64,000 bases of DNA from Candidatus Hydrothermarchaeales archaeon (lineage in GTDB: Archaea > Hydrothermarchaeota > Hydrothermarchaeia > Hydrothermarchaeales > JAZGAD01). The notes under the pieces are model-generated. The model saw only the letters and a program-made list of their open reading frames with translations, ran no database searches and had not been told where the DNA came from. The stretch spans positions 20,070 to 84,069 of the forward strand of contig JAZGAD010000014.1 in NCBI GenBank assembly GCA_036444275.1, in the 5' to 3' direction. A program made the position numbers and the translations under genes. Positions 4,125 to 42,813 of this stretch are shown piece after piece; positions within the stretch are counted from its first letter, which is position 1; each line of letters opens with the position of its first letter.

Positions 4125-4999
4125 TAGTAGTGCATTGACGGTGAGGGTGAGAAAGGTAAAATACGGCTATCTGGCAAGTATATGTAATGTATAGCCCCTG
4201 AGGCTAAGTAGGCTAATTTGCACTTCTTCTTTGTATCTAAGATAAAGATTACATTACGCCATTTGGATTATCTAACGAATAAGAAATTTCGAAAGATATA
4301 TAAAATTCTAGTATTAACTAATATACTATCTATTTTTAAGCTTTTTTTAAATTCATTTTTAAAAATAGAATTAATTTTTATTATATATTGTAATTAAAGA
4401 CAAAATAATATTCTATATAATCTAAAACATATTTATTCTATCCCGATACTTGCATGCAGTGTTGCACTTTTCATGGCAGTGAATATTTATGCAATAGGTC
4501 TATGACAGAATTATATAGAGGACTTACAAAGTCCTCGGAATCCAATGTTGAAGGTTAAAGATTTAACACTTCATTATTAATACCGTAGTATACCACTGAA
4601 TCTCTTGACAAACTCGAAGGAAAAGGATTTGAGGCTTATTCAGTTCATAGTGCTTGAGGGTAGTGGAAAGGGCACTAGTCATTATAAAAAACTTTAACTT
4701 AGCTTCCTCTGCGGATTATGCCCGGTAGATTGACCTTTTTTCCCACTTGAGCATTGGATCATTTGCCAGCTTTTTCCACCTCGCGATATGTTTACATTGA
4801 CGTAAACCCTTTCACTGGATTCTCTTAGCATTTTCCACTGGAAACATACCTTTTGGCCCCTATAAGTGCTTTCTCAGCTCGTTTTTGATCCCAGAAAACC
4901 ATGTGCATATCTGCTCTAACGCGGTACGCTAGCGTAACTCTAAAAATATATACTTCCGGGACCAGAAGTATATCGAGATATTTGGAGCAGTTCGGTAAG

Positions 5000-5007
5000 T
5001 TATAAAT
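5000..5007 (+). promoter_or_regulatory. Archaeal TATA box of the wHTH-giant gene operon
   Basis: TTATAAAT ending about 25 bp before ATG 5033, consistent with a leaderless transcript. Confidence 0.5.
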
Positions 5008-5032
5008 ATGCACCATGTGGGGGGCAAGAAGC

Positions 5033-5254
5033 ATGCAATTATCCCGAGTCGATAAACGCATCATAAGCGTTCTAGTAGAAAAGAAGCCCAAGTCCCGTTC
5101 TACCTATCAAATCGCCAAGAAGGCCGGGATTTCTTGGTCTACTGCTATAGCGCACTGCTACAAGCTCAAGGCAGATGGAATAATCGATGGAGAGACAGAG
5201 AAACCGAAATTTGGAAGCAGAGACACAATAGTTTGGAGGAAGAAGAAGGAATAG
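5033..5254 (+). CDS. Small winged helix-turn-helix transcriptional regulator (ORF-track start 5015; 5033 preferred)
   Basis: DKRIISVL...STYQIAKKAGISWSTAIAHCYKLKADGII is an ArsR/AsnC-like HTH; ends 29 bp before the giant ORF. Confidence 0.8.
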   Translation: MQLSRVDKRIISVLVEKKPKSRSTYQIAKKAGISWSTAIAHCYKLKADGIIDGETEKPKFGSRDTIVWRKKKE

Positions 5255-5283
5255 GAGACATTTTTGGAATCTAACGTGGGAAC

Positions 5284-8200
5284 ATGAAGTTTAAACCTCC
5301 CAGTAGGATATTGGCAGCATGGATATTACCATTTATACTAGCTTTAGCTATCTTTAGTTCTTTATTACAACCTTCTAGTAGTATTACTATACTAAACCCT
5401 AATGCTCATCCAAAGCTAGGGGACAACTGGAGCATCCACTTTTCTACCACAGGCTCTGGTATTCTGGAGATCTACGACCACTCCTTCCCAGAGGAAGTCG
5501 AGTTCATCGGCTTGTACGCCGAGATAGACGATGAGTACAAGAAGGTCCAGGTGAGCATCAAAGGAGACTTGATAACTGCTAACTGGCACTACTCCTCTGG
5601 TGAAGCGATCTTCAAGGTTCTAACACCTCAGGAGCATTCTCTCGAGTTCAGGTTTGGAGAGCAGGTGGTCTATGCATACAACTTCGCTGACCTGCTTATC
5701 AACCTGACTGCTCCGTCTCAAGTCGCCAGGGGGCAGGTTATTGAGATTGGCGGTGAGGCAAGGAATCACGACTTGGCAGATGTCTCCTTGATCTATGTCT
5801 TGCCACAGGGCTTCGAGGTTGTTTCAGGCGAGAAGGTGAAGCACTGTGGAACCGGTTATCTTTGCGAGAGCAGTTTGGTTGTGGATACCTCTAAGGCAAA
5901 GCTTGGAGAAGGCGTAATAAAGCTCCAGGGATGTGCCTACGGCGTATGTGAGAGCGAGAGCATTAACATCTTTGTGGATCGGGTGCTGACTGAGAAGGGG
6001 GAGCCTGTGCAGGAAGAGGTAGAGGTAGGCAAGCCTGTGCGCTGGAGGCAGCACATCCAGGTTAGGAATCCCCTGCATGCTCCTGTTTTCAATTATTCTC
6101 TGCCCCTGCCAGAGGATGCGTCTGGTATTGCTGCGCCGGTTATTGAGGAAGTTAAGCCTGGACAGAAACTAGGCTTCGACGTGATATTCTACACCGGGCC
6201 AGTGGAAGTAGAAGAAGAAGATCGTAACATTTCCCTGCGTTCTCTGATTCCAAAGAATGCCTTGAACATAAAGATAGATGGGAAGGTAGCTGACGCGGGC
6301 GCTCTAGATATTGAAATACCTGCTAAATTGGTTCGAGTGAAACATAATGCTTCGTTGCACTACCGCGATATACCTGTAAGCATAGGCGTTTCAACGAAAG
6401 AGGTGACAGTATTCTATGATGCCAATGCCGGGGTGCTGGATGTTAACTCTGGTCAGCTAGAAGTTGTGGAGGGCGAGGTTTTGGGAGATCAGCTGACTTG
6501 GGTTGTGCCCAAGCTCTCTGAGAAGAGGTATTGGATAGCGCAGGTTCAAAGGACTCAAGGTAAGGCAGAAGTGAATAAGACTGTTGGTTGGACTCTGAAA
6601 GCCGGCGGTACAGTTGTCGAGTACGAGACGCCTGCGCCTGTTATGGAGGAGATACCGGTAGAGAATGGCACCCAGATGAGGGTTAAGAGCGATGTAAAGT
6701 ACTCCAATGTAACTGCAACGGCTAGTGTTCCAGAGGGAAAGAATCGCACGTTACGCGTAAATGGGAAAGGGGAGTTTAAGTTTGCAGATGTGCCGAGCTT
6801 TGAGGTTGAGGCTACTGAAACGGGCCATGCTCTCTATTGGCTCAATGGAAGTGTAGAGCTCTTCAACGAGAGCAGGGATGTAACTAGCGATTCCGCGCAT
6901 TCAGTTAGCTTCTTTGACGCTAACGGCAATGGCGTAAATGACAGCGTAACTTGGAACATACCCACCCTTTTGGAGCAAAATTACCTATTACAAGAGACAG
7001 CAAAGGTAGCGGAGATTCGAGCACGAGTCGAGGATGCCAAGGGCTATAGATTGCCGGTTGCTCCTGAGATCAGGCTTGTCGACGGGAAGTATAAAGTAAC
7101 GATCCCGCAGGGCAGGGGGGTAAAGCCTGGGTTATACAAGCTCGTCGTTGAATCGGAGGCTGGTGTAGAGGAGCTGTGGTTTAAGTGGGGACTGATATCG
7201 ATAAACACCAAGAAGAGTATGTATCATCCTGGCGAAGAAGCTGAGATACTAATGGTTGTACTGGACAAGGAGGGCCATCTCGTCTCTAACGCGGACGTCT
7301 CTTTTGTAGTTACTAATCCGATTGGTGTGCCTACGTTCTTCACGACGGACGATGGTTCGATCGTTGAAACTCAAAGGGGAATATACGAAGCAAGCTATCT
7401 AACTTTTCTGGAAAGCAATTATTCGCTCTTTGCCACTGCTAGTGCAGATGGGGTGGCAAGCACTATCAATTCATATTTCACAGTCAAGGAGTACTACGAG
7501 TTCGATATCCTAAGGGATACACCAGTGACCATTGATCCTCAAAGAGGACCCTTTGATTCCTCTATAAAGGTGGTTTCATATACCGATGCATCTACTTTCA
7601 CCCTGAGGGAATACTTACCGGCAGAATTTTCGATAGTTGATGCGGGCGGAGCTAAAGTTACTGTCGTCAACGACACGAAAGTATTGGAATGGAGCGATAT
7701 TACCAATGGTTCAAAGGTTAGCTACAAGTTCAACACTCCTTACATCTGGCCTTACCTCTACATGATGGGACCGGCGGAAGTGGAGTATGCTTCTGGCACG
7801 TTTATAGAGGCAAGGCCGTGGATGCTGGCGGTTGATCCCTCAACTTGTGAAGGTAATACGTGCTATGAATGGTTTGAGGATACGCCGGGATATAGTGCTT
7901 CTGATGGTAGTACAGAAACTTATGAATGGACACCTCAGTCGTGTCCTGGGACATTAAACTGTTATATCCAAAATATCACGGTTAAGTTTAGGTTTACGAA
8001 TCCATTTTCAGCGATCCGAACTGGGTTCGAAATCTATTTTAGCAACATGTCTGGGGGAACAACGTATTATTACCCAGCATATCATGGGGCACTAAGTGCA
8101 GGAGGCCAAGTTGGTCCACAGTGGGCGTGTAACTATACTGACAGTGCACAACCCTCAGGGTATTTAAATAACACCTGCAACTTAGCGCCGAGTGACGGAT

Positions 8201-11200
8201 TTAACAAAACTACCCATAATGTAACTCTTGTTGCGCCGGGTAAAACCTTAACAGATGTATTAAACATAAAATACAAATGGGTCTGGACTCCAGCAATGCC
8301 ACAATTGAGCGATGTAACCGTCACGCCTTCTTCCGCTGGTTGGGGAGCCCTCCGGAACTTCTCAGCATTTTACACAGACCCACAAGGCGACGCAGGCAAC
8401 GTGACATTGTTCGCGAAGACCTCAACTAGCGGCTCCTTCACCTCCAAAAATCTGACAGCCATCACAAACGGTACGACCGCGTCGATATTTTACCGTTTTG
8501 ACATCACCGACTTCGAAGCGCTCGGCGTCGGGTGGGAGTACAGGCTTAACGCATCTGACAATAATACTCCACCAAACTCCTACCTGACCAGTTCCTACAC
8601 ATTCACTGTCACCAAGGATGCCACCACCTTCCAGAACACAGAAGGCGACGGTGCCGTAATCAACCGCAGTGACTCTCTTCCAAACAATACTGTCCCTCTC
8701 TGGTCTTACATCTACGATATGGAAAATGAGAGTCTCGCACGTGCTAATTCCGCCGCAGGAAAAATAGAGGGGAGAATATGGATTAACAAGAACGCCAGCG
8801 CCGGATACGTGGGCACGGATGCCCACAGCGCAGAGACCGACAGTGATGGTAAATTCAAGGGCACCACAGAACTCTTCAACGCAAGCGGTTATTTCAACCC
8901 TGGCTGCACTTACACCACGGGTCAGCACGTCTGGTACGCTGAGACGCTGGCCCACACAAACTACACCCAGAACGACACCCTAGCCATCAACAGCGGCAAC
9001 AACTACACGCTTTACATCTGGGGGACCCTGAGCAACTCCATAACATCGCCAGATCCACCCGGCAAAGAATATACGGTAGGCGAAAACGTGCCTCTCTACG
9101 GCACAGTCTATGATGATTGCAGTGTCCTCGTAACAGATGCAAATGTTACCTTCCGCGTGTACAATGCTACCCTTGGAGTAGATGATAACCTAACTGCGAG
9201 CTACAACCCTCCCCAGAACCGCTACGAAGCTTCCTGGAATTCCACGGGAAATAGTACTGGCATCTACCAGGTGGAGATGATATCTAACAAGAGTTACCAC
9301 CCCGTGGACACCGCCCAGACGAACTTCACACTCGTGGAGCTGATAACACTGAACTGGACCGTGGTTCAGGGAAATGGCTCGATCAGCAACAGAACAGGTG
9401 AAGAGATTAACACCCTGGTAGTGAGGATAACCGATGACGCCACAAATCCGGTAACGAATGAGAACGCAACCCTCTGGATCACCTACGATGGGACCAACTC
9501 TATACAGAAAATCACCAACGAATCAAACAGCTCCGGATATCTCGTATATGATTTTAATGCGACCTGCGACCTCGATGTGGGTGAGCAGGAATGGAAATTG
9601 GTTATGCAGGACACAACCGAGTTCCAAAATCCGAACTCTTGGGATGATGGAAATGAGTATTACACGGATATATGGGGAACCACAACCCTTGATTTTGCTT
9701 ATCCAATTGCCGGAATCTATGATATGGGTGGCCTGATAAGGCATGAAGGCTACGTCTACGACGACTGTGGCAGCGAGCTTGACGGTGCGACGGTCAATTT
9801 CACCATTGTCGGGCCGTCAACCAGTCCATCTCCATATTACTGCGAAAACGTCGAGGCGCCTCTAGCAGGCTTATACAAATGTAACTCTACCGCGGGGGAA
9901 GGTTGGGACTCATCTGGAATGGACGAGGGATGGTACAACTCGACGATAAATGTATCCAAGAGTTACCACTACAACAACAGCGTGATAAAGACCAATGGAA
10001 CCCAGTCTCTCTTCAACCTCCGGCTTACACCACCTGACCTGTTCGACGCGGATGTCCAACCCAGAAAAGACGGCTGGGGCAAAAACTACACCTTCGCGGT
10101 TAACATCACCTATGCGGCTGGAAAAAACGTTAGCGTACTCCTGTACTATCAGCCCCAGTTGATGGAAGAAGAGCTTCTTGCATCCACCGGAAACTTTACC
10201 CTACCCTCATATACATATGCTGTCAACTTCACCGATCAGACCTTTAACTCGACTCTGGTTGATAAGACTGTCAAATTCAGGTATGAGATTAAATACTATC
10301 CACCCGGTCTGGGTGAACAGAGCGTCTGGACGACAATAACCGAGACGGGAGACTACAACCAGTCTAATACTACGGGTGTGGATGACAACGAGTTCTATTT
10401 GGAGAAGGATGATGTTCTCCTGAATTATTCTGCTGGGAATGAGTCCACCGCAAGCCTCCAGGTAGAAGCGACTTTTGTACTCCGCATCTGGGATATAACT
10501 CGGGGTGTCTGGATTAACGCGACCTCTACTTCTGTGAAGTTCAACGTAACTAAGAACTGGCCGAGTTCTGAAAATGTGACGGTGAATACTACGACGACGA
10601 ATGCGACTGGCTATGCTTTTACGGATTTCTTGCCTGACACGAGCTACAGCTCGGGATTGCAGAAATGGTTCGGATATATCCCGGATACTGATCCCTATTA
10701 CAAATTCAATGTCTCTGATATCTTTGATGTTAATCTTTCTATTCATCCACCGCAGCTCGTCAATGCCTCGGTGGATAAGACGACGGCTGGTTGGGGTGTG
10801 AATCGCACCTTCAGTGTAGAGGTAACTGATACTGTGGACAACGCCACCGTAAGCCTCTGGAAGACTGATACAAGTGGATTCGTAGCAGATACAAACTGGA
10901 CTTTCATAGCTGCGAAGAATTATACGGATGTCGGCAACTGGACGCAGCTTAACTTCACCACTAGCTTTTCACCGTCGGATATTGGGGGCTGGTATTACAA
11001 GTTCAACGCGAGCGACATCGCTGGAAACACCAATTATACTAGCGAGTCTTCCTATACTTTCACCGTCGACAAGGACGATGTTATCTTGGAGTACGTCCAG
11101 GGAGATGATTCCCCAGCGAATAGGTCTGACAATCAAATCGACCGCTTGATCGTAAAGGTGAAGGATGAGAATGGCTCGTACATCGGTAATCTTAGTGTGA

Positions 11201-14200
11201 CTTTCAAGGTGACCTTTGATGGCTCTATCTATGATACGGGTACGGCGAACAATACGAATACCTCCGGCTACGCGATCTACAACTTCAATCCCGGATGCAG
11301 TAGTCCAAAGTACGGGGTGGGTGTGCAGAACTGGACCGCGGTGAGCTCGGAAACGAATGCCTATAAGTCCAATTCATCTTCTATTTACAACCTCACAATA
11401 TGGGGTGATAACGTCATCACTTTCGATAGGCCTGCCCCGTATCCGACTGGCTATTACGCTGTAGGTGATAGGGTGCCCTTCCGGGTCCTCATTAAGGATG
11501 AATGCGGCGATGAATTAGGGAAAAATGAAGACTCGGATAAGGAGGTGAAGTTTTATGCTATAGGCCCGGATACTTCGCCGCAGACATATGACTGTGGAAC
11601 TGTCTCCTCTAGTCTTACCGGTCTCTATGAATGTGAGAGCGCTGCTGGCGGTTGGAACACTACAGGAAAGTCTGCGGGAGACTATAATGCTACTGCGGAC
11701 GTATCTCTCGCTTATTACTACATCAACAACTCGATAAACAATAGGATCGTACCGGAACGTGATAACCTCACTCTGGCATCTGGTTCCGGTTGGTTCAGGC
11801 TTTATGTTCCATCTCAGCCCCCTGATCTCACCGCTGCGGACGTTAACCCTAGGAAGGACGGTTGGGGCAAAAATCGAACCTTCTCGGTGAATGTGACAAG
11901 CCCCAAGAGCGGGAAGAACATAACTGTGGTTCTCGAGGTGAAGAAGAGCGGAGAAGATTATGCTCAGATCGGCGATGCCCAAAACTGGACTTCAGGCGGT
12001 ACCGGTAGTTCTAAGATCCTTGAATGGAATGTCTCCTTTTATCCGGCGAATGTCTCTGTCTTACCCTACAAATTCAAGTTCACTGCGACCGATGAGGATT
12101 TGGAAGAAGATGTGACCAACATCCCGGCCGAGTATACGAATACTACACCCCTTGAAGGCATAGACGAGAACGAATTCAAAATCGAGAAGGACGATGTTCT
12201 CCTGAATTACACCGCTGGAAACGGGTCCCTCGTAAATCTTCAGGTAGAAGCGACTTTTGTGCTCCGTATTTGGGATATAACTCGGGGTGTCTGGGTCAAC
12301 ACGACCTCTGCCTCTGTGAAGTTCAATGTGACCAAGAACTGGCCGAGTTCTGAAAATGTGACGGTGAATACCACGGCGACGAATGCGACTGGGCATGCTT
12401 TTACGGATTTCCTGCCTGACACGAGCTATAGCTCGGGATTGCAGAAATGGTTCGGATATATCTCGGATACTGATCCCTATTACAAATTCAATGTCTCTGA
12501 TATCTTTGATGTTAATCTTTCTATTCATCCACCGCAGCTCGTCAATGCCTCGGTGGATAAAGAGACGGCTGGTTGGGGTGTGAATCGCACCTTTAGTATA
12601 GAGGTGAGAGATACAGTGGATAACGCCACATTGAGCCTCTGGAGGTCAAGCCAGATTGTTGGCCAACCTTGGTATCTCATAGCTGAGAAGAATTATACTG
12701 ATGTGGGAAATTGGGTTCAACTGAACTTCACCACCAGCTTTTCACCGTCCCTTATAGATACGTGGTATTACAAGTTCAACGCGAGCGACATCGCAGGAAA
12801 CACCAACAGCACGGATGTTGTATCCACGCGTAACTTCACTATCGATAAGGACGACGTCATCTTGGAGTATGTTCAGGGAGATGATTCTACAGCGAATAGG
12901 TCTGGCAATCAAATCGATCCCTTGATTGTGAAGGTGCGGGATGAGAATGGCTCTTATGTCGGTAATCTTAGTGTGACTTTCAAGGTGACTTATGATGGCT
13001 CTAACTACGATAGTGGTACGCCGAAGGATACAAATGGCTCTGGATATGCGATCTACAACTTTGACCCTGTTTGCACTCCAACAAAGTATCAGGTGGGTGT
13101 GCAGAACTGGACAGCGGAAGTCTTAGAGACGAATGCCTACAAGTCGAACTCGTCTTCTATCTACAATCTCACTGTGAGGGCTGAGTTCAACAACACCATT
13201 ACTAAGCCGCCGGGAAATGAGAACTATACTTTGGGTGATACCCTTACCTTCCAAGCAGTTATCAGGGATGACTGCAACGATAACCTTGACGGGGTAACAG
13301 CCAACTTCTATGCCTCCAATGCCACCGTTGAGTATGACTGCGGCAATGTAACACTCATCCTCTCGGGAACGGGTATATACGAATGTACGTGGGCATCTGG
13401 TTTAGCAGAGGAGGGATGGTACAATGTAACATTGAACACTACCTTGGGCAACTACCACTACTACAGCGATACCACGAAGTACGATCAACCCGGTCTCTTC
13501 TACCTGTTGTTTAAGGAACAACCCCCTGATCTAAACTCGGCTAATGTTACTCCTAGGAAGGATGGCTGGAGTCTCAACAGGACTTTCACGGTCAACGTAA
13601 CAAGCCCCAAGAACGGGAAGAACGTCACCGTATGGCTAGAGTTGAAGAAGGGCGGAGGCTCCTACAACCCCGAGGGTGACGAGCAGAACTGGACTTCAGG
13701 CGGTCCCGGTAGTTTCAGCATCCTCGAATGGAACATTTCCTTCTCCTCAACTGATGTTGACCTCTGGTTCTTCAAATTCCAGGCTAAGGATGCGGATGGG
13801 GTGACGGATACTACCTCTTTGACCGAGTCTGGCGATTATGTCAATGATACTAACGAGTTCAACGTCGAGAAGGACGATGTGAATATATCCTACATCTATG
13901 GAAACGAAACCGAGATCGCGACCTTATCCAACCCGTCTACCTTCATACTTAAGATTTGCGACGAGGACGCAAACACATGCAACCTGACACCCAGTGCGAA
14001 GGTCAAGTTCAACGTGACCAAAGATGGTATTGGAACCGATTACTACGCCGCACGTGGTACGGATGGGAACGATTATAACTACACCAACGGCACTGGACAT
14101 GTGGTCTTCGAGTTCCTTCCAGATACTAGCTGGAATTCGACTAAGCAGAGCTGGATCGGCTATGTTGTTGATGACTACTACAACTTCACCACGTCAGGCA

Positions 14201-32200: not shown

Positions 32201-35200
32201 CCACGGTAAAATGGTTCAACGTAAGCACTGTCAACATCGGCCTGAACGACACTAACGAGACCATGTGGGATCCTGACTTATTGGCGCAACAGGATACCGG
32301 GGAGGACCTCCTCATCAATGCTACAGCCTACAAGGACTACTACGACACGAATTCCGGCTACCTTTTTATAAATATAACCGGCACAGCCAACGTCTCCTGG
32401 GTCTCGCCAACACAGGGACAACAATATCCAAATCCCTTCAACCTTACCTGCAACGTCACAGACAGTGTCTCAGGAGCAATCATCTCTGGATACAATGTTT
32501 CCTTCTGGTACAAATATCCAAATGAAAACTTCACCTACAATGGTACCATACCCACAGATTCCGAAGGAAATGCCACCTATATATGGACGCCTCCAAAACC
32601 AGGGGAACCCTATATGACCTTTATGTGCAATATAAGCGACTACACCGAGGAGAACTACAAGGCCTCCGACGACAAGAACTCCTCCTCCATGAACATTCCG
32701 GTAACAGATATGACGCCGCCCTTCTTCGACACCTTCCTAGTCACGCCCAACGAGAGCATAGAGGCATGGGAGACGATAAACATAACGGTGAATGTTACAG
32801 ACGACAAGGGGATAAATGTAGTCTATGTCCAGATCGGGGAATACAATGGCACCCTTCAGAACTACACAATGAATAACCTCACACCAGTTGAGCCAGACGA
32901 GCCAGCTATATACTTCTACAACTATACGCCCGAGTGGGGCGGAGACTACAACGCCACGATATACGCCGAGGACACGTCTGCGAGGAACAACGGCAACTGG
33001 TCGCATACTGAGTACTTCACTATATGGGGCAAGGCAGATGGAGTTACAGATAATACACCTCCACCTCCATCCCAAGTGGCACTCTATAACATATACTACG
33101 ACCGCGGGCAGACCTTCAATTTGACCATAAACTTCACAAACAATGGTGATGGCACAGCATATGCTGTCAACCTCACGATCTACGATAACCAGCCTACTTT
33201 AGTCATCAACTATACACCTAACTATAAGTATCCTAACTATATGCAGCTGTATGACGTAAATGCAGGCGTTACGAACCTAACGGAGGTTAATGTCACGATA
33301 CCAGCTGCAACTACAGCAAGAACTATTTATATCTATGGAAACGTGACCTGGAGAAATCCTGATAAGACAATTAACTCGAGCATAGCGCAGACAGTCGTGC
33401 TGGTATATGAGAACCCGGTGCTAAACGTTACCGACGACTCCTATCAGCCAGAGTTGCAACTGGAAGACGTCCGCCATGGAGATAAGAAGGAGGGCACAGT
33501 AATAGTGCAGTCCATCGGGAACGCGAACATCAGGAATATCAACATATCAAGGGACGATGGAGCGCTGGACAACCTCGGTACCGATTGTCCGTACTGCAAT
33601 GTAACCTTCAACGACGATACTGTATACAGCATCCCCAGCCTACCCTTAGGCGTAACCTCTACGGTTACAGTAGTCGTGGATGTGCCTTTCGGTCAGGCTC
33701 CAATGTCGTACACAAGCCACATAAAAACAATATCAGAGAATGCAGCGGCAAAGACCATTCTTATGAATGTTACTGTGGCAGGGAATGCAACGTGGTATGC
33801 TGAAACGTCGTATGCCGACCCCAGTACACTCGGCAATATAACCGCCTTCCACCCCAATCAAAGCGGGTACACCAAAGGCACTATGGGCAAGATCACTCTT
33901 ACAAATATAGGCAACGTGAGGATATCCTATGCGATTACAGTCCCGCATAAAAACACCGAGATGAATGGAACCACGATAGAGGTTAATGGCCAGTATCCAC
34001 CGGATCCAGTCTCGATCCCTGAGCCCTACCTACAGCCTGCTGGAACGAAGCGTACGCTGGAGATAAACTACACCATCCCAACTACTGCCGATAGAGGGCT
34101 GTACTGCAAGAATATAATGATAGATGTAACTAAGGCAGAGCCCGTAAAGGTTGAAGACGCGAAGCCGTTTTCACTCAATATTCCCTTCTGCCTTGAGGTA
34201 ACTGACCCGAAGTACAACTGGAGCCATTCCAAGACAAACATCTCCATGGAGGTCATACAGGGCACAGACGGCTTCCTCGGCACCTTGAACATAACCAACC
34301 TCGGGAATGTCGAATTTTACTTGGAGGTGAACAAATCCGTCGAGATCATAGCTGTCTCCAATCTCACCCTAGGCCTAGGTGTTAACAAGACCCAAGAGGT
34401 ATCCTTGAACTACTCAGCTCCAGTAACTCATGAGCTAAAGAACTATACGTATTACTTCAAGACCGTGAATGCATCAGGAGAGCCAACTGAGAGGATAACG
34501 TACATCAACCTAACGGTCCAGCCCTACTTCATAAACATAACCCAACCCACAAAAGACGCTCAGAAGAAGGGCGTGTTCGGTGGCGATGAGATTCTTATCA
34601 GGGTGAACGTGACCTATAATGGTACAGCGGTAAACGACACGGGCGATATGAACTGGATTGTAACGCTGTTCAACAGCACCTACTCGAAGGACTATACTCC
34701 ATCTGCTCCGCTTGATGAAGTTTACGACAATGTAACTGAGCAATTCAACCTCACCATACTTGTCCCCAATATAGCCCAGAGGGCCTATGATTTGAAGGTA
34801 ACAGCCACTTACTCACCAAAGAACCTTGTGCTCGCTGATGTCGAGAATGATGCCATAGTCTATAATGATACTATCGACCCAGTGCTTAACCTGGTGGTGC
34901 CAGGAGAGGTAACCGTGGGACAGTCCGTGGAAATCCTCCTGAACGTGACAGACGCTGGATCGATAAATGAGTCGACGGTAAGCGCGAACATAACGGATCC
35001 CAATCAAATCACCTTCGATCTGAACATGAGCTCTATCGACAAACAGGGCGATACTTACCGGTACAACAACGTATCCATCCCAACCCTGGAGGGCACCTAC
35101 ACCATAGATGTCACGGCCTGCGACGTAAGCGGACGTTGCGCGTCCAACAGCACGTCCTTCAACGCCTACATAAAGGTAGACATCAATGGCACTGCTAAGG

Positions 35201-38200
35201 ATTCAACTAGTCAACTCGCGGAGGTCAGCTTCAAATTCTATGACAACGGCACCACTAATCTCGCCCCGAATGGTAGCTTCAGCAATAACGTGACTGAAGG
35301 ATACTCCCGCACCTTCTACGCAAGGTTCTATGACCTTGAGATAAGTGCGTTTGGCCATGTCATAAAATTCGAGAACCTGAATGTGAGTGACCACTTGAAC
35401 GATCCAATACGCCTCGACGAGTTCAAGGAGGGCGATATCTCAGAGAACAACTTGAATCTACCTCTCGGAAGAAGGCTTCTGAAAGGCATTGGGGTTAAGA
35501 CCAACTTTACGAATCTGACTACGGAGAAGGTGACTTTGATCCTCAACTACTCCGGTACAGTGCCAAATGATGAGGACTCGATAAAGATATACAGGTGCCC
35601 TGGCTCAAGCTGGACCTTCGAGCCAGATAGCGCGAGGGGATGCACAAACTGGGAGGAACTCGGAGGTACCCCATACAAGCCGGCGCAGACCATACAATTT
35701 GAGGTTGAAAACTTCTCAGCCTACGCTATCACCGAGGAAAAGCCAACAGTGCCTCAGATAACTCTTACCGCTCCAACGGGCGGCGAGACATGGGCCGACA
35801 ATCAGAGCATTACCTATACCTACTATGATCCAAACGGCAACAACCTGGATGTCTACATATGGTATAGCAACGACTCCGGTGCGACATGGAACTATATATA
35901 TAATAAGACTTACACCGACACTGGTACTCAGAAGACAGGTTCCTATTCTTGGGATACTACAAGCAGACCAGATGGAAGCTACCTGATCAACATCACCGTC
36001 ACAGATACAGATGGAATGACGAATGAAGACATCTCTGGAGCTTCCTTCACCATAGACAATATCGACGATGATCCACCTACGGTAACCCTCACAAAGGAGC
36101 CCTCGGATTCGACGTGTTCCCAAGACCTATTCTTTGAGGGAAAGGCAATCGATGCGAGATCAAACATCAGCGCAGTAGAATACCGGGTGGACGGCGGCAG
36201 TTGGATAAACGCTACTCCAATAGATGGTGCCTTCGATTCCCTAGAAGAAGAGTTCAACTTCACCACAGGTACCCTATCCTTCGAGAGCCATGCCATCGAG
36301 ATCAGGGCTAACGACAGTTCTGGCACATCTGGGTATTCAACACCCCTCTACAAACCCAAAGAGGTTACGAGGGCCTGCCAGGAGATAAAAATACCCTCCG
36401 GCGGAGGTGGCGGTGGAGGTGGCGGTGGAGGCATCTCCCCCACCTGCGGTAACGGCATTTGCCAGCCAGGTGAGAACAGTGAGAACTGCCCACTGGACTG
36501 CGCACCCACAAACGCGACGAACGCATCAGTGATCATGCAGAGGGAGATAGAGCGCCTACGTGAACAGCTCGAAGAGATCAGGCAGACGATAAGTGATACC
36601 GCGAATGAAACCGCTGAGAGGGTAAGGACGATGCCTACGATTTCTCCCTTCACGATACAGACGAATCTCGCTGAGGTAGAGCTTCATCCAGGAGAAGAGA
36701 AGTGGTATTCCATCTGGATAAGCAACCACTTGAGCAGGGACCAGAAGGCAAGGCTCTCAGCCATGGGCGTTGGAGCGCAGTTCATCGAGATGTACGTAGA
36801 TAGTGTCAAACTCTTCACCGAGGCGACTGTCACCCTAAAGCCGGAGAGCACGCAGCACATAAAGGTCAGGGTCTATTCCCTGCCGACAACGATACCAAGC
36901 ATATACACTGCCGATATCCTTCTGAGGGTAAACGGCCAGAACCATACCATACCTGTGACCATAACTATAACGCCTGAGAGAGAAGCCCTGCTCGATGTCA
37001 AGGTAGAGGCGCTGACCAAGAGGCTCACTCCAGGGAAGCTCATCAAATATCACGTCTCGCTTTACAATCTCGGCTTCAAGAAGAAGTTCGATGTGCACAT
37101 GGTATACAAGATAAAGGACGTCGAAACAGAGAAACTCATCGACTGGTACGAAGAGGAGCTAGCCCTAGAGACGACGCTCTCCTTCGTGAAAACATATCCA
37201 ATGGAGAACCTCACCCTCTCAATCGGCAGTTACTTCATTGAGATAGAGGCGATATACGAGAAAAATAGGACCGCTTCTGCAGCTGATATATTCGAGATAG
37301 TGCAGCCGTTCTGGAATAGAACGAGGAGGCTGGGTGTTCTAGCTCTCATCCTGCTCATTACTGCCAGCGCAGCTGGATATAGAGCTAGAAAATGGTACTT
37401 AGCCCAGAAACTCGCGAAGGCCAGATACCTGTTCCCAGTCGCGGAGGATAAGCTCCCCAAGGGCGAGCTCTGGCTCGGCAAGATAGCTGAGACAGACATC
37501 AAGGCAACCTTCGATATGGACGACCTCATGGTGCACTGTATCACTGCTGGTGCAACCGGCTCTGGAAAGAGCGTCTCGGCCATGGTAATAGTTGAGGAGG
37601 TATTGAAGCAGAATATACCGGTAATAGTCTTCGATCCAACCGCGCAGTGGACAGGCTTCGTTAGGCCGTGTAGAGCAGAAAAGATGCTTGCTTTCTATCC
37701 CAACTTTGGGTTGAAGGAGACTGACGCTAGGCCCTTCAAGGGTATGATCTTCGAAGTGACTGATCCCTTCGAGATGGCTGATATAGACTACCGCAAGTAC
37801 ATGAATCCAGGCGAGGTAACAATATTCGCCTTGGACAAGCTCGAGCCGCAGGAGTTCGACAAGGCGGTAAAGAACATCATTGACGCGCTTTTCAAGATAT
37901 CCTGGGAGGAGTCGCCTCACCTCAAGGTCCTTATAGTGATGGACGAGGTCCATAGGCTGCTTGAGAAATACCTGTCGATGGGCGGCATAGTCTCGGAACT
38001 GGAGGGCTATAAGTCCATCGAAAAGGCATGCAGAGAGTTCAGGAAGTGGGGTATAGGAATAATCATGGCCTCCCAGATATTGTCTGATTTCAAGGAGACA
38101 CTTAGAGGAAACGTCATGACTGAGATACAGCTCTTTACAAAGGCAGAGGAGGACCGGCAGAGGGTAGCTGACAAGTACGGCGCAGAGTACGCCCAGAGGA

Positions 38201-40197: not shown

Positions 40198-40198
40198 T

Positions 40199-42265
40199 GT
40201 GATTAAAATGGTTCGACTAAAGGAAAAGATCAGATCTGTCATCCGCCGCAAGGAAAAGGACTATGGGGAACCATATATCGAGGAGGACTACGGCCTTCCA
40301 CCCGGATTCGAGGATGATGTAGGGATCGAGGAGTCGGAAGGCGAATATGTGCTCTTAAAGATCTTTGAAAGAGAGAGCCCTGATATTGGATTCTCATACG
40401 CTGCAAACAAGATCGAGGAGTTAAAAAAGGATATATCCGCTCTTAAGGCAGAAGCGGATTCACTATCAGGGGTAAACGCCACGCTGAGGGTGGATCTGGA
40501 GAGGCTTCTCCCCCTAAAGGGGGCGCTGGACGAGCTGAGAAAAGACATAGAAGAGAAGGACGATGTAATCTTTGCGAAGAACCTAGACATAAAGAAAGTG
40601 AATAAAGCCCTCGATCGCATGCAGGTAGAAGTAAGCGAACTAAGGAGGGAGTTGAAAGATAGGGAGCGGTTGCTGGAGAGGGGTAATAAACGGCTGAAGC
40701 AGATGGAGGATACGACTCGGCTGGATGAGTTGGAGGCAGAGCTCAGCGAGCTCAGGGTGACTGTTACGGAGCAGAAGGATACCCTCGCTATAAAGAGTTC
40801 TCAGGCAGAGGAATTCAAGCAGATGGCAGCTGCCCAAGATGAGGAGCTGAACACCATAAAGGCTACTTGGTGGCAGCAGGGCAAGGAATTAAAGAAGATG
40901 AAGATAGAGCTGGAGGAGAAGACGGGCATCCTATCCTCGAAGGAGGGCTTGATAGAGGAGTTGACAAAGAAAACTACGTCCCTCAACGAGGTATTGGAGA
41001 GTATGCGGCAAGATGTGGCTGATAGAGAAAAGAGGCTCTCTACGTTTGGGGACCACATATCCGATGCAGAGAACCAGCAGAAGAGGCTGGAGAAAGAGCT
41101 TCGAGAAAAGGAGGAGGTTATAGGTAAAATCACTAACAATTTAGGCAGAGCTGAGTCTCGGGTAGATGATTTGAGGAGCCAGCTAGAGGAGAGGGATTTG
41201 CAGCTGCAAGGGACTACGAAGAGGGTCAGAGAGCTTGAGGATACGGATAGATTCGAGGATTTAGAGGCCGAGCTTAGCAAGTTGAAGGTGACTGTTGAGG
41301 GGCAGAAGGATACCCTATCTTTAAAGACTTCGGAGGTTGAAGACTTGAAGCAGGCTGCAGCTGCCCAGGAGGACGAGCTGAGCACCATAAAGGCTACTTG
41401 GTGGCAGCAGGGCAAGGAATCAAAGAAGATGAAGATAGAGCTGGAGGAAAAGACGAGTATCCTCTCTTCAAAGGAGGCATTGGTAGAAGAGTTGAAGAAG
41501 AAATCTGCGTCCCTCAGCGAGCTCTTGGAGAGTATGAAGAGGGATGTAACTAACAAAGAGGACAGGGTAGAGGAATACGAGGATAGGATCGGCCGTCTAC
41601 ACGGTAAAATAGGCGCCTTAAGGTCAGCTATAGGTATCGAAGAAGGGCAAAGAAAGAGCTTGAGTAAGAGATTATTTGGTGGTAAGAAGGAACTCACATT
41701 GGAGGACGAGTTAGACCTCCTGACAGAGGATATAACCGTAAATCAGGGCAGGGTCGTCGGCTATGACAAGAAGGTATCAGACTTAGAGATCCAGGTAGAG
41801 AGACAGAAAAAAGCCTTGGAGGAAAAGGAGGGGACCATCTCTGCAAAGACCAGCGAGATAGAAAAACTCTTGGATGTTTCCTCCTCCCTGAAGCAGGAAT
41901 TAAGAGAATTAAGGGAGAAGACACCTGTGGAAGGTACCAAAGAGGTAGACGCGAAGGAGGCGGCCTCCCTAAGGCTAGCAAAATTGAAAAGAACAGTTGA
42001 GGGCGGACCCGAGGAAATAATCGAGGAAAAACCTGTAATGGGGGAAAGGGAAAGACTAGAGGAAGCTGAAAAGGAAGCGGAGAAGTTAAAGATCAAAAAA
42101 GAATTAAGAATGCTGGAAATTGAGAAGAAATCGACCGAAAAATTATTGGAGAGGCTTCCAACTGCTAGTTTTGATGAAACAGAACGCAGTATGAGGGAAG
42201 CGAGCTATACGGAGAAGCTGACGAATATATCCCGCAGTATCGAGGAATTGAGAGAAAGGCTGTGA
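40199..42265 (+). CDS. Long coiled-coil protein with an internal 177-aa duplication (alternative ATG at 40208)
   Basis: E/K/L heptads throughout; TIKATWWQQGKE.KKMKIELEEKT occurs twice, 531 bp apart; no Walker motifs; abuts the upstream gene. Confidence 0.85.
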   Translation: MIKMVRLKEKIRSVIRRKEKDYGEPYIEEDYGLPPGFEDDVGIEESEGEYVLLKIFERESPDIGFSYAANKIEELKKDISALKAEADSLSGVNATLRVDLERLLPLKGALDELRKDIEEKDDVIFAKNLDIKKVNKALDRMQVEVSELRRELKDRERLLERGNKRLKQMEDTTRLDELEAELSELRVTVTEQKDTLAIKSSQAEEFKQMAAAQDEELNTIKATWWQQGKELKKMKIELEEKTGILSSKEGLIEELTKKTTSLNEVLESMRQDVADREKRLSTFGDHISDAENQQKRLEKELREKEEVIGKITNNLGRAESRVDDLRSQLEERDLQLQGTTKRVRELEDTDRFEDLEAELSKLKVTVEGQKDTLSLKTSEVEDLKQAAAAQEDELSTIKATWWQQGKESKKMKIELEEKTSILSSKEALVEELKKKSASLSELLESMKRDVTNKEDRVEEYEDRIGRLHGKIGALRSAIGIEEGQRKSLSKRLFGGKKELTLEDELDLLTEDITVNQGRVVGYDKKVSDLEIQVERQKKALEEKEGTISAKTSEIEKLLDVSSSLKQELRELREKTPVEGTKEVDAKEAASLRLAKLKRTVEGGPEEIIEEKPVMGERERLEEAEKEAEKLKIKKELRMLEIEKKSTEKLLERLPTASFDETERSMREASYTEKLTNISRSIEELRERL

Positions 42266-42420
42266 AGCTAACTGACACCGTATTGTTGGCACTTTTTTAG
42301 GGTCTAAGTCTAATGAGGGTACGGGGGAAGTACATAGCATGCATTCTACTTTACTTACTACCTCGTCTCCCCTAGGTCAGAGCTTTCGAATTGAATCGAA
42401 GACTAAGACGCTTCAAATTC

Positions 42421-42813
42421 TTAGCTTATATACTCTGGGGCTGCGTTTCGCTGTGTCCAACCCAAGGTCAGCGTTTTGAATTCTTCCCTCTTCTCCTGTA
42501 GTTTCTGCCGTATCTCTATCTCTAGTTGGTCTAAGGCGTCGCTGTCAAGCCTCATAATCTCTTGGATCTCCGGGCCAGCAGTTTCTGGGAGTTCTAGGTC
42601 CAATTTCTTCGCAAGCGTTTTGAATTCTTCCCTCTTTCCTTGTAGTTTTTGCCGGATCTCTACTTGTAGGTCGTCTAGTGCGTCGCTGTCAAGCCTCCTA
42701 GCTCTAGATATACTTTGGTCCCTCAGTCCTAGGTCTCCTCTATCGAAGGCAAAGAGGTCACCAGTTTTTCCCTGGTAGAGCAAGCCTTCTCCAAAGTTTC
42801 CAAACTCTATCAT
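42421..42813 (-). CDS. Hypothetical protein with a 48-aa-spaced internal repeat
   Basis: RLDSDALD.L..EIRQKLQ.KREEFKTL twice (144-bp offset); GGAGG RBS and ATGA overlap with the upstream ORF. Confidence 0.6.
   Translation of the reverse strand: MIEFGNFGEGLLYQGKTGDLFAFDRGDLGLRDQSISRARRLDSDALDDLQVEIRQKLQGKREEFKTLAKKLDLELPETAGPEIQEIMRLDSDALDQLEIEIRQKLQEKREEFKTLTLGWTQRNAAPEYIS

Follow-up and report, generated by a model that had tools for sequence, protein, structure and literature searches.

A probable SPEARE-type surface-fibre and ATPase module with a coiled-coil companion in a Hydrothermarchaeota-order archaeon

Giant archaeal surface proteins of the SPEARE type have been described as consisting of a signal peptide (SP), an array of Ig-like domains, a transmembrane (TM) segment and a conserved cytoplasmic ATPase (Hamm et al. 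2019, PMC6642349; Front Microbiol 2023, PMC10266531). The portions of these accounts considered here quote sizes of 8,553 aa and roughly 9,000 aa (PMC6642349), and give 9,409 aa for the largest giant in cultivated archaea (PMC10266531). We have analyzed a 64,000-nt stretch, hereafter called the window, of contig JAZGAD010000014.1 from Candidatus Hydrothermarchaeales archaeon, and consider that it carries, with a probability of about 0.7, a SPEARE-type surface-fibre/ATPase module whose parts are functionally linked, here as part of a chromosome from an archaeon of a Hydrothermarchaeota order. This host does not belong to the DPANN symbionts, and the same window carries the genes for Mtd, MTHFR, CofC/G/H-type proteins, two PurP and deoxyhypusine synthase. 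The features of the locus are the following.

2..2191, - strand: 5' part of a divergent surface-protein gene, which extends 3.3 kb past the window start
4948..4973, no strand assigned: near-perfect palindrome of 26 nt (arms of 12 nt around a 2-nt spacer), 27 nt 5' of the TATA-like box
5000..5007, + strand: TATA-like box TTATAAAT, 25 nt 5' of the wHTH start codon
5033..5254, + strand: wHTH gene heading the gene string (ATG 5033, TAG 5254; 73 aa)
5261..5265, + strand: T5 tract inside the wHTH-giant spacer
5284..38520, + strand: giant gene (ATG 5284, TAA 38520; 11,078 aa)
5308..5364, + strand: N-terminal hydrophobic segment by Kyte-Doolittle analysis, residues 9-27 (widest 5-32), taken as signal peptide
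8581..31083, + strand: super-repeat array, about 22-24 copies of ~335-340 aa each (residues about 1,100-8,600)
37330..37380, + strand: predicted single TM helix, residues 10,683-10,699 (hydrophobic segment to 10,701)
37405..38517, + strand: predicted HerA-clade P-loop ATPase domain, 371 aa, with a C-terminal three-helix tail
37549..37572, + strand: Walker A of the ATPase domain
within 37936..37953, + strand: Walker B (hhhhDE) of the ATPase domain
38542..40197, + strand: CC1 gene (ATG 38542, TGA 40197; 551 aa)
40208..42265, + strand: CC2 gene (ATG 40208 or GTG 40199, TGA 42265; 685 aa from the ATG)
42293..42298, + strand: T6 tract, 28 nt past the stop codon of CC2, which may serve the string as an archaeal terminator

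The initial annotation had proposed four co-oriented genes with small gaps, lying behind one TATA box and followed by a T-tract near 42293, and this layout is confirmed by our analysis. The spacers measure 29 bp between the wHTH and giant genes, 21 bp between the giant and CC1 genes, and 1 bp (GTG) or 10 bp (ATG) between CC1 and CC2, the ATG start of the latter agreeing with the N-terminus of its homolog in genome G001. In a pattern scan, TTATAAAT is the sole TATA-like word on the + strand from 4683 to 8162, and its distance of 25 nt from the wHTH ATG would imply a leaderless or near-leaderless transcript. The palindrome upstream may be the operator of the wHTH protein; its half-site word AAGTATAT recurs upstream of the wHTH gene of G005. 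Separate promoters or terminators for the giant, CC1 and CC2 genes were looked for with simple patterns, and neither TATA-like words (32366 to 42265) nor T5+ tracts (32363 to 42265) are found between them, while the Shine-Dalgarno-like words AGGTG and GTGAT occur 5' of CC1 and CC2. Within the giant gene, T5+ tracts are depleted on the sense strand (4, vs 12.7 +/- 3.4 in codon-order shuffles) and A5+ tracts lie at the shuffle level (23 vs 22.8). All four genes may form a single transcription unit, with its promoter around 5000 and its end at the T6 tract (42293), within which the T5 tract following the wHTH gene could act as a partial terminator or attenuator. The divergent gene, which encodes a product of 1,842 aa with a signal peptide, an MG2-NEW3 ectodomain and a C-terminal TM segment, occupies the same position in G005 and is possibly a fifth member of the neighbourhood.

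The product of the giant gene can be recognized from its sequence as a type-I membrane glycoprotein, with a signal peptide, an ectodomain that is glycosylated and built of beta-sandwiches, a single TM helix and, in the cytoplasm, a HerA-clade ATPase. A Kyte-Doolittle scan of its 11,078 residues returns only two hydrophobic segments, the N-terminal one and that at residues ~10,683-10,701, leaving an extracellular part of about 10,650 residues; N-X-S/T sequons number 655 in the ectodomain and 0 in the cytoplasmic part. The super-repeat units are built of Ig-like/MG2-like beta-sandwich domains, their period being evident in self-BLAST offsets that peak at 330/340 and multiples thereof, and the ectodomain matches MG2, Big_1, Big_7 and PITM1-3 in Pfam. 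The giant frame, open for 33 kb, is a real gene and not a product of chance, and G005 has a homolog of 10,846 aa within a contig of 1.9 Mb; an assembly artefact is also unlikely, because the DNA self-repeats of the gene are merely 83-85% identical.

Sequence and structure predictions agree in presenting the cytoplasmic part as a P-loop ATPase of the HerA clade, its Walker A and B motifs being intact. The domain matches Pfam DUF87 (E 7e-10) and, in a profile search of the PDB, HerA 4d2i (E 1.3e-14); its AF2 model (pLDDT 92.6) has the same HerA structure as its best Foldseek match (E 4e-14, TM 0.55), followed by SIR2-HerA and DUF4297-HerA. Identity to 62 homologs of other phyla ranges from 56 to 77%, and in 65 sequences the glycines, the threonine and the lysine of Walker A never vary, while the D-E pair of Walker B is at least 90% conserved. 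The HAS barrel of the HerA N-terminus is absent from the model, only about 40 residues separating the TM helix from the P-loop strand, so that ring formation would follow by analogy only. The fusion of surface protein and ATPase is kept in at least 573 loci, and 80 related loci include seven titled Nanohaloarchaeota, with an ATPase identity of 49-56%. By these matches and by the described layout, the giant adhesin-ATPase appears to be of the published SPEARE type, which the initial annotation did not recognize. The four ATPase domains of Hydrothermarchaeales do not form one clade (p-AU 0.0042, for a group named after the tree was seen), and the history of the module in this order is therefore not one of simple vertical descent.

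The gene following that of the ATPase encodes CC1, a protein predicted to form long helices, for the model of which no matching solved fold was retrieved. Its helical N-domain is conserved over residues about 4-207, reaching about 340 in closer relatives; a Pro-rich linker occupies residues about 350-480, and residues about 485-548 form a C-terminal module. The family comprises about 850 clusters at E<=1e-10, without a curated name, and its members vary from 232 to 1,126 aa, the C-terminal part being highly variable. CC1 homologs lie directly 3' of the ATPase gene in 67 of the 80 related loci (66 on the same strand, one on the opposite strand), which bears out the association with TM-DUF87 genes that the initial annotation had supposed. 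An adjacent CC1 is missing in the other 13 loci, two of which have less than 500 bp of downstream sequence, and four of five genomes of this kind that were tested have CC1 elsewhere, one copy lying behind another ATPase paralog. Among 41 relatives, the ATPase is found in four and CC1 in six; all four ATPase-positive genomes have CC1 and 35 have neither, so that the co-occurrence holds in this sample too. A locus with CC1 has a single gene for it, even when the ATPase is represented by two or three tandem paralogs, and in G001 a pair of short ATPase paralogs is followed by a CC1-like gene. The N-domain of CC1 (~200 residues) is thus a conserved genomic companion of the ATPase across archaeal phyla.

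The other members of the string are less widely associated with the giant gene. CC2 has an internal duplication (residues 164-284 and 341-461, 64% identical) and shares with CC1 a C-terminal module of ~55 aa, here at residues about 625-685, the two copies showing 28% identity over 68 aa and the module being alignable across 10 tails from six genomes. Neither CC1 nor CC2 has a hydrophobic segment (maximal 19-residue Kyte-Doolittle means of 0.51 and 0.48), in agreement with their earlier description as soluble coiled coils with a common C-terminal motif. CC2 is restricted to this order, being present in two of the 80 loci, both from relatives of the window, and absent from all 78 outside the order. 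The gene order ATPase-CC1-CC2 is found in G000, G001 and G005. In one genus (g13) the ATPase gene is unlinked from CC1-CC2; downstream of the ATPase gene of G020 come a small membrane gene and aroD. The CC1-CC2 pair of G013 and G024 adjoins a divergent pyruvate carboxylase gene, and no ATPase was found in these genomes, which are 78% and 62% complete. In family f5, cheR follows CC2, so the coiled coils could serve another system there. In G005, G020 and G024 it is cheR that follows the pair; ORF translations read as cheD, cheC and cheA-like also lie near CC1-CC2 in G020 and G024. The winged-helix-turn-helix (wHTH) protein has two Pfam matches below the curated cut-offs, to HTH_24 (E 2e-4) and to HTH_11 (E 5e-4), and its family directly precedes the giant gene in only three of the 28 loci with a visible giant-gene 5' end, besides the window; in G005 the homolog is 1.7 kb away on the upstream side, with two opposite-strand genes in between. 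Its recurrence is only sporadic. Of the four-gene machine envisaged initially, the pairing of the ATPase with CC1 stands, whereas CC2 is confined to the order, the wHTH gene recurs sporadically and linkage is absent in g13.

In the mechanism that we favour, the ATPase would form a ring beneath the membrane, as other HerA/FtsK-family enzymes do, and such a ring would bundle several fibres, as we propose. CC1, in this view an adaptor or stator and not cargo, may bind this ring or the three-helix tail by its N-domain, and CC2 may join CC1, or a common target, via the shared C-terminal module. Where the fibre makes contact, ATP hydrolysis would do one of two kinds of work: it would drive a polymer, DNA or protein, through the ring, or else alter the state of the fibre. 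The adaptor/stator mechanism, taken alone, is tentative, with the odds somewhat against it. As the host lies outside the DPANN symbionts, a role in general cell-cell or cell-surface contact is more likely than parasitism.

A different function follows from the proposal, printed for the nanohaloarchaeal giants, of a secretion 'straw' analogous to VirB4/TraG-type systems (PMC10266531): the ATPase would be the motor of a T4SS-like apparatus, the ectodomain a conduit for effectors or DNA to or from the contacted cell, and the coiled coils accessory. The family does belong to the FtsK-HerA pumping ATPases, Foldseek also retrieves FtsK and the coupling protein TcpA, with E values of about 1e-9 to 1e-8, and weak NCBIfam matches to CedD (43.8 bits) and TraD are seen. 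We nevertheless regard the straw as unlikely, for the top sequence and fold matches are to HerA and not to VirB4 or VirD4, the CedD score compares with a cut-off of 600, neither a VirB4 N-domain nor a pilin, relaxase or further T4SS family is seen in the scanned window proteins, and one TM helix per subunit with solid beta-sandwich arrays would offer no obvious channel. The straw overlaps the polymer-translocation branch of the mechanism favoured above. EccC/EssC, the membrane-bound FtsK-like ATPases of type VII secretion, handle helical-hairpin substrates, and by this analogy CC1, CC2 or both could be substrates of the ATPase; a conserved helical N-domain of ~200 residues with a highly variable C-terminal part is indeed the layout of many secreted polymorphic proteins. 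This idea is distinctly less probable, given that none of 10 long homologs has an enzymatic or toxin family in its C-terminal extension (E<=1e-3; coiled-coil noise in two), that tandem ATPase paralogs are accompanied by a single CC1 gene, and that CC1 and CC2 lack a signal sequence.

The linkage itself would be misleading if the coiled-coil genes, CC2 above all, were historical neighbours serving some other system, for instance chemotaxis/motility or chromosome handling, the functional unit then comprising only the giant gene and perhaps that of the wHTH protein. The pairs without an upstream ATPase gene in G013 and G024, the chemotaxis genes near the pair and weak NCBIfam matches to SMC/Rad50 coiled coils fit this reading; we judge it just as improbable as the cargo, against the 67/80 adjacency across phyla, the phyletic co-occurrence, the CC1-like gene behind short ATPase paralogs, and SMC/Rad50 scores (56.6 vs a cut-off of 567) confined to coiled-coil arms with no P-loop head. 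Finally, the DUF87/HerA matches might suggest that a canonical HerA DNA-repair helicase has by accident become joined to a surface protein, or that the giant ORF is misassembled or a pseudo-ORF. Such an origin is extremely improbable: it is contradicted by NurA and a separate HerA-like ORF of canonical length (515 aa), on contigs C28 and C33 of the genome respectively, by the conserved fusion, the long open frame with compartment-specific sequons and the G005 homolog, and by the diverged DNA repeats. The earlier claim that nurA, mre11, rad50, relaxase, pilin and archaellin are not recognizable in the window also holds, none of these families being matched by Pfam in the 24 window proteins scanned, four small ORFs at 60.7-64 kb apart.

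Compared with known systems, the ATPase has the RecA-like core with Walker A and B in common with HerA (Sulfolobus 4d2i), SIR2-HerA and DUF4297-HerA, but differs in being membrane-anchored, in lacking the HAS-barrel N-domain and in having a coiled-coil partner instead of NurA, Mre11, Rad50, SIR2 or DUF4297. VirB4/VirD4 (TraG, TcpA) and the archaeal Ced ATPases share the FtsK-HerA superfamily and membrane association; the former are weaker Foldseek matches than HerA, and the latter are approached only by the sub-threshold CedD model, with no further T4SS or Ced component in the window. The FlaX ring of the archaellum, FliH/FliJ of flagellar export and the peripheral stalks of A/V-ATPases are coiled-coil scaffolds or stalks of membrane ATPases, which CC1 resembles as a soluble, elongated helical protein encoded beside a putative ring ATPase at the membrane, on which it would act; the analogy is functional only, no sequence or fold relation being detected. 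The closest likeness is to the SPEARE proteins of Nanohaloarchaeota and other DPANN which, as far as the portions of the accounts considered here go, also have a signal peptide, a very long adhesion ectodomain, a single TM near the C-terminus, a P-loop ATPase as their most conserved part with helices at the end, and short paralogs often in tandem. In contrast, the present protein is longer, at 11,078 aa, than the published giants quoted above, its Pfam scan gives no laminin-G, serine-protease or toxin-like domain, and the coiled-coil partner, the order-specific CC2 and the wHTH gene find no mention in those portions of PMC6642349 and PMC10266531. With a Hydrothermarchaeota-order host that has H4MPT/F420 metabolism genes in the window, the locus would present the SPEARE design in an archaeon other than a tiny symbiont, and give the SPEARE-type motor a companion, namely the coiled-coil gene that lies next to the ATPase in most related genomes.

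The giant gene of the window encodes a predicted member of the SPEARE type, the published design of giant membrane-anchored ATPase proteins known from DPANN archaea, and the identity and linkage of this protein and its gene module can be given a probability of about 0.7. The assignment is based on architecture and on 49-56% identity of the ATPase domain to loci titled Nanohaloarchaeota or Nanohaloarchaea (the named matches come from Nanohalobium and QJJ-5), not to NAR1_1133, AOV94740.1 and SVXNc_0300 themselves. According to the main text of Hamm et al. 2019 (PMC6642349), such nanohaloarchaeal proteins reach 8,553 aa, lie for the most part outside the cytoplasm, carry a TM helix close to the C-terminus and have relatives in Woese-, Aenigm-, Micrarchaeota and Altiarchaeales; their cytoplasmic part, the most conserved region, was read as a type III restriction domain. 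The main text of a 2023 paper (PMC10266531) reinterprets this part as an ATPase of VirB4/TraG-like type that ends in a coiled coil, reports examples of 9,409 and 8,880 aa and a second ATPase paralog downstream, and proposes a secretion 'straw'. SPEARE giants account for up to 4% of some DPANN genomes (main text of PMC6642349) and are leading candidates for how DPANN symbionts grip and exploit their hosts, their mechanism being disputed between a protease/nuclease 'spear' and a secretion 'straw'.

The gene string of the window and the elements around it are as follows.

4948-4973: near-perfect palindrome of 26 nt, 27 nt 5' of the TATA-like box of the wHTH gene
5000-5007 (+): TATA-like word TTATAAAT, 25 nt 5' of the first ATG
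5033-5254 (+): wHTH ORF, ATG 5033 to stop 5254, 73 aa, 5' of the giant gene
5261-5265 (+): T5 tract inside the wHTH-giant spacer
5284-38520 (+): giant gene, open frame of 33,237 nt, 11,078 aa
38542-40197 (+): CC1, soluble coiled-coil protein, 551 aa, 3' of the giant gene
40208-42265 (+): CC2, soluble coiled-coil protein, 685 aa from ATG 40208 or 688 aa from GTG 40199
42293-42298 (+): T6 tract, 28 nt past the CC2 stop

The initial annotation had described these four co-oriented genes with gaps of 29, 21 and 1 bp behind one TATA box and ahead of a T-tract, and all of these elements were located, the gap of 1 bp between CC1 and CC2 corresponding to the GTG start of CC2. It becomes 10 bp with the ATG start, which agrees with the N-terminus of the homolog in the related genome G001; ATG 5033 is taken as the wHTH start because the homolog in another relative, G005, starts at the corresponding residue. 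Pattern scans of the plus strand found no further TATA-like word in 32366-42265 and no run of five or more T in 32363-42265, so that the giant/CC1/CC2 junctions are free of such signals for separate promoters or terminators, and AGGTG and GTGAT words lie 5-8 nt ahead of the CC1 and CC2 start codons. Signals and spacing, as patterns in the DNA, agree with wHTH, giant, CC1 and CC2 forming a putative single transcription unit. Among the sequencing runs listed for 34000-42600, four are of DNA type (shares of 0.05-0.30) and none is of RNA type. The sense strand of the giant gene contains four T5+ runs vs. 12.7 ± 3.4 expected from 200 codon-order shuffles, a depletion of about three-fold, and 23 A5+ runs vs. 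22.8 ± 4.3 expected, with no depletion; the former would fit selection against oligo-T terminators on the very long archaeal message of a 33-kb gene. The palindrome is a candidate autoregulatory operator of the wHTH gene, and its half-site word AAGTATAT is found also in an AT-rich stretch 5' of the G005 wHTH gene (L034:4290-4330). Scans of the 64-kb window for tRNA and against Rfam gave no match.

A Kyte-Doolittle scan of the 11,078 aa of the giant protein found two hydrophobic segments only. The first (residues 5-32) corresponds to the N-terminal signal peptide of the SPEARE type, and the second, sole internal one (10,683-10,701) to its single TM near the C-terminus followed by a cytoplasmic C-terminal region. 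All 655 N-X-S/T sequons (5.9 per 100 aa) lie ahead of the segment at residue 10,683 and none behind it; this one-sided distribution together with the hydrophobic segments fits a predicted N-out, C-in type-I glycoprotein. The long extracytoplasmic adhesion array of SPEARE proteins (Ig-like/beta-sandwich) is likewise present, Pfam recovering only scattered beta-sandwich families, namely MG2, Big_1, Big_7 and PITM1-3. Offsets in self-comparison peak at 330-340 aa and multiples thereof, and each 150-aa probe has about 21-25 matches over residues ~1,100-8,600, which indicates a putative super-repeat of about 22-24 copies in the ectodomain. Since the only two pairs of DNA-level self-repeats above the BLAST threshold are 83-85% identical, collapse or expansion of repeats in the assembly appears unlikely; moreover, the G005 homolog of 10,846 aa lies inside a 1.9-Mb contig. 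The protein is apparently the longest SPEARE member in comparison with the published figures of 9,409, 8,880 and 8,553 aa, and it is among the largest predicted archaeal proteins, exceeding the 9,409 aa given in the main text of PMC10266531 as the largest in cultivated archaea. Over its whole length no serine protease, laminin-G or restriction-endonuclease Pfam family was found at E ≤ 0.01, a weak ResIII match over the P-loop being the sole trace of these acronym domains; they are probably not defining for SPEARE, because the main text of PMC10266531 disputes their existence in these proteins.

The last 371 residues match Pfam DUF87 (E 7e-10) and, weakly, HerA_C, FtsK_SpoIIIE, TrwB and ResIII. 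A profile of six relatives searched against the PDB retrieved Sulfolobus HerA (4d2i, E 1.3e-14) followed by defence-type HerA proteins. Foldseek with an AF2 model (alignment of 65 sequences, mean pLDDT 92.6) also gave HerA 4d2i as best match (E 3.6e-14, TM 0.54-0.55, probability 1.00), followed by SIR2-HerA, HerA-NurA and DUF4297-HerA and, lower, by TcpA, STIV2 B204 and FtsK; the model has three long helices (303-370) at its C-terminal end. The glycines, threonine and lysine of Walker A do not vary among the 65 aligned sequences, and conservation of the D-E pair of Walker B is 90% or higher, as in an apparently competent HerA-clade ATPase. Identity to the window sequence is 56-77% in 62 main-family members and 43-47% in two short G001 paralogs; the domain is highly conserved across phyla, whereas the ectodomains of the relatives range from ~500 to >11,000 aa. 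The top NCBIfam match, the Ced DNA-import ATPase CedD, was rejected, for its 43.8 bits cover 57 residues around the P-loop and stand against an equivalog cut-off of 600.

The initial annotation had expected the coiled-coil genes to neighbour TM-DUF87 ATPase genes, and for CC1 this holds. Among 80 loci, the best of at least 573 confirmed related ATPase loci, phmmer against all ORFs found a CC1 homolog in 67: 66 of these homologs are co-oriented with the ATPase gene and immediately follow it, and one (L087) is on the opposite strand; clustering by BLAST counted 66 loci with a homolog. Two of the 13 loci without an adjacent CC1 (L090, L123) have <500 bp downstream, and a whole-genome search in five of the 13 recovered CC1 elsewhere in four, with one copy behind another ATPase paralog. 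Tandem arrays of two or three ATPase paralogs have a single CC1, behind the last paralog (L058, L084, L094), and in G001 a CC1-like gene at 29% identity comes after a pair of short paralogs (673+ and 687 aa). These short TM-ATPase genes lie in tandem at L038 (G001:C115) 3-2021 and 1966-4026, and the first, which has FENAH instead of FDEVH at Walker B, may be catalytically dead. Of 41 related genomes, four contain the ATPase (E ≤ 1e-20), each together with CC1, six contain CC1 and 35 lack both; as these genomes are kin, the counts of co-occurrence are not independent of one another. The CC1-CC2 pair without any ATPase that could be found occurs in G013 (78% complete) and G024 (62% complete). 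We conclude that CC1 is a dedicated, co-occurring helical partner of the motor, adjoining it across phyla.

In about 13 loci the ATPase gene and CC1 are separated by an additional gene for a protein of 235-340 aa with signal peptide and C-terminal TM; this gene is absent from the window, and its product has no match in Pfam. Examples are the following.

L036:844-1662 (G005): inserted signal-peptide/TM gene
L045:11241-12155: inserted signal-peptide/TM gene
L047:11238-12251: inserted signal-peptide/TM gene
L078:11854-12870: inserted signal-peptide/TM gene

In G005 the inserted protein is similar to the part of the giant nearest the membrane (E 1.4e-5, 50% identity over 39 aa). Seven loci have a MinD/ParA-type ATPase gene near CC1 (L062:4414-5202, L066:12184-12972 and five more from Aenigmatarchaeota), and an amino-acid permease gene directly follows CC1 in three (e.g. 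L055:9102-10613 and L060:2818-4347), a fourth copy lying upstream in L083.

Conservation of CC1 covers residues ~4-207, extending to ~340 in closer relatives, while the remainder is variable and homologs measure 232 to 1,126 aa. Its profile matched 986 cluster representatives at E ≤ 0.001 among 1.84 billion proteins (847 at 1e-10 and 436 at 1e-30), with source names such as 'hypothetical', 'SbcCD ATPase subunit' and 'chromosome segregation ATPase'; the nearest clusters in the ESM Atlas are unnamed archaeal proteins. The AF2 model is all-helical (mean pLDDT 82.5, pTM 0.33), with helices at 10-75, 78-124 and 126-199, a disordered stretch at 196-216 and further helices thereafter. Fold search with this model returned generic helical hairpins and no solved fold at E ≤ 0.001, the family matched only coiled-coil noise in Pfam, and the profile search of the PDB did likewise, its best match being a designed coiled coil (E 0.0017). 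An SMC/Rad50-type ATPase was rejected for both CC1 and CC2, since matches were confined to arm regions (NCBIfam, 56.6 vs. 567 and 17.3 vs. 700) and neither translation contains a P-loop. A Rosetta-stone fusion of CC1 and ATPase was also discarded: the five longest CC1 relatives have low-complexity or other N-terminal extensions, and P0163, one of these, is not similar to the ATPase (best E 4.9). Two co-folding runs of CC1 1-240 with the ATPase domain at 1:1, without controls, scored 0.00, which counts neither for nor against an association.

CC2 has a much narrower distribution, with homologs only in the window's own genome (G000), G001, G005, G013, G020 and G024, and it occurs in 2 of the 80 loci, those of G001 and G005. 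It contains an internal duplication (residues 164-284 vs. 341-461, 64% identical). The C-terminal motif said to be shared by the two coiled coils is real, the last ~60 residues of CC1 and CC2 having 28% identity over 68 aa, but it is restricted to the order. The pattern recurs in ten tails from six genomes, each behind a Pro-rich or low-complexity linker, and an HMM of the module searched against all ORFs of the 80 loci matched the CC1/CC2 ORFs of L044 and L046, four in all, and nothing else, the DPANN CC1 tails included; the module is therefore order-specific. It matches no Pfam family, and SHOCT or SHOCT_2 was rejected after 0 of 7 CC1/CC2 tails (G000, G001, G005, G013) matched at E ≤ 10.

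The layout of the string varies among relatives. In G013 and G024 the CC1-CC2 pair starts directly after a divergent pyruvate-carboxylase B gene, and in G020 a small membrane gene and aroD come after the ATPase gene, CC1-CC2 lying on another contig. Directly after CC2, three genomes of family f5 carry cheR (Pfam E 6.5e-53 for G005).

L036:5250-6194 (G005): cheR after CC2
L041:2194-3021 (G020): cheR after CC2
L042:2224-3144 (G024): cheR after CC2

In f5 the coiled-coil pair may thus have a link to chemotaxis genes. In G020 and G024, ORFs whose translations resemble those of cheD, cheC and cheA are found close by, encoded on the other strand. The wHTH family, as retrieved by iterated search, includes the window and G005 and directly precedes the giant gene in L055, L064 and L069, i.e. 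in 3 of the 28 loci where the 5' end of the giant gene is visible; in L091 and L101 it is near CC1, on the opposite strand, and in G005 it stands 1.7 kb upstream of the giant, two genes of the opposite strand intervening. In five other loci the upstream place is taken by an ORF of 72-86 aa encoding a TM plus helix. The four-gene machine of the initial annotation thus survives in part: the tight string without signals at the giant/CC1/CC2 junctions and CC1 beside most ATPases are in its favour, but the layouts of G013, G020 and G024 and the rarity of CC2 and of wHTH speak against a fixed unit of four.

In a ML tree of 65 ATPase domains the window pairs with G001 (99), and G005 and G020 group with two other loci having non-DPANN titles (99). 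The AU test rejects a single clade of the four Hydrothermarchaeales ATPase rows (delta lnL 45.8, p 0.0042), a clade chosen after the tree was seen. Given this rejection and the presence of the module in 2 of 10 sampled families of the order, its history involves loss, transfer or old paralogy. The titles of the 80 best loci are mostly Aenigmatarchaeota, Nanohalo-, Woese-, Pace-, Parv- and Altiarchaeota, and few are Heimdallarchaeota, Methanosarcinales, Halobacteria, Methanobacteriota or Hydrothermarchaeota. Since binning errors may account for some of the non-DPANN titles, the range outside DPANN is better judged from long contigs, e.g. that of G005, which the genome search places in one order with the window's genome. 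The ATPase domains of L057 (Methanosarcinales-titled) and L061 (Nanohalarchaeota-titled) are almost identical, with branch lengths of 0.02, and a Heimdallarchaeota-titled contig pairs with an Aenigmatarchaeota one in the tree.

The host of the window module is not a DPANN archaeon. Other window genes encode Mtd, MTHFR, CofC, two radical-SAM proteins of CofG/H type, two PurP, deoxyhypusine synthase, OMP decarboxylase, an amidohydrolase and a HtrA-like protease; the adjacent PurP (DUF1246/DUF1297) paralogs at 47819-50002 (-) and the F420/H4MPT pathway genes at 51-57 kb constitute an ordinary chromosomal context. At the other end, a divergent gene at 2-2191 (-), continuing 3.3 kb past the window start (L131:2733-8261), encodes a surface protein of 1,842 aa with signal peptide, MG2/NEW3 ectodomain, Pro/Thr-rich stalk, C-terminal TM and a cytoplasmic helical tail of ~85 aa. 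Its G005 homolog (42% identity over 1,082 aa) has the same upstream divergent position, and the protein may belong to the same surface system as the giant; its tail did not match SHOCT, nor significantly the CC1/CC2 module (4 bits). A PAS-domain gene at 2609-3331 (-) and a PIN_3-domain gene at 3717-4124 (+) separate it from the wHTH gene, and a very AT-rich stretch at ~4200-4450 lies between them and the module.

By family analogy, the ATPase would form a ring beneath the membrane that ties several fibres together, on which the conserved N-domain of CC1 would dock as adaptor or stator; CC2 would join through the C-terminal module that it shares with CC1, and ATP hydrolysis would move a polymer through the ring or alter the state of the fibres at a contact site. 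We propose the adaptor/stator step only tentatively. It is favoured over a cargo role because each locus has one CC1 whatever the number of ATPase paralogs, because CC1 is without a signal sequence and because scans of ten long homologs found an effector domain in none, for which reason a polymorphic-toxin reading of the CC1 C-termini was also rejected. Secretion or DNA transfer is compatible with the same anatomy and appears to us rather improbable. Equally speculative is the broader idea that SPEARE giants, rather than being a tool of DPANN parasitism, are the visible portion of a trans-envelope machine general to archaea, in which a HerA-like motor ring would bundle glycoprotein fibres and be coupled inside to an adaptor/stator of the CC1 family (~850 sequence clusters), with ATP moving DNA or protein across, or pulling on, a cell-cell contact; Hydrothermarchaeota would add CC2 and, in one family, adjoining chemotaxis genes. 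If this were true, the chemotaxis neighbours would hint at a link between surface contact and motility control. Because a lineage that is metabolically self-sufficient carries the same module in its chromosome, no model can depend on the presence of a host. Motor and CC1 would make up a defined complex of two proteins, testable through their soluble domains of ~370 and ~200 residues.

In comparison with published systems, the giant protein design itself is known and the window's giant is a further member. The main texts of PMC6642349 and PMC10266531 apparently make no mention of a conserved coiled-coil gene, the word 'coiled' occurring 0 times in the former and once in the latter, for the giant protein's own tip; that of the Hydrothermarchaeota lineage paper (PMC6775978) apparently mentions neither giant or adhesion surface proteins nor HerA. 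Apparently new with respect to the main texts of these papers and of PMC9563170, whose supplements may list neighbours, are the CC1 partner, CC2 with the shared module, the occasional wHTH and the non-DPANN chromosome. A VirB4/TraG-type T4SS ATPase was rejected: TrwB_AAD_bind and T4SS-DNA_transf match only below threshold over the P-loop, neither the VirB4 N-domain (CagE_TrbE_VirB) nor the coupling-protein all-alpha domain was found in the ATPase, and no T4SS family was found in the neighbours. By sequence as well as by fold, the motor is closer to HerA than to VirB4. It is also distinct from canonical HerA of the NurA/Mre11/Rad50 operon, in view of its TM-linked domain without barrel, NurA on another contig and NCBIfam HerA models giving 13-28 bits vs. 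cut-offs of 800-970. The giant thus shares with canonical HerA the RecA-like core of the HerA clade, as seen in PDB profile and Foldseek searches, but its ATPase follows a TM helix and, with only ~40 residues between this helix and the P-loop strand in the model, therefore has no HAS barrel.
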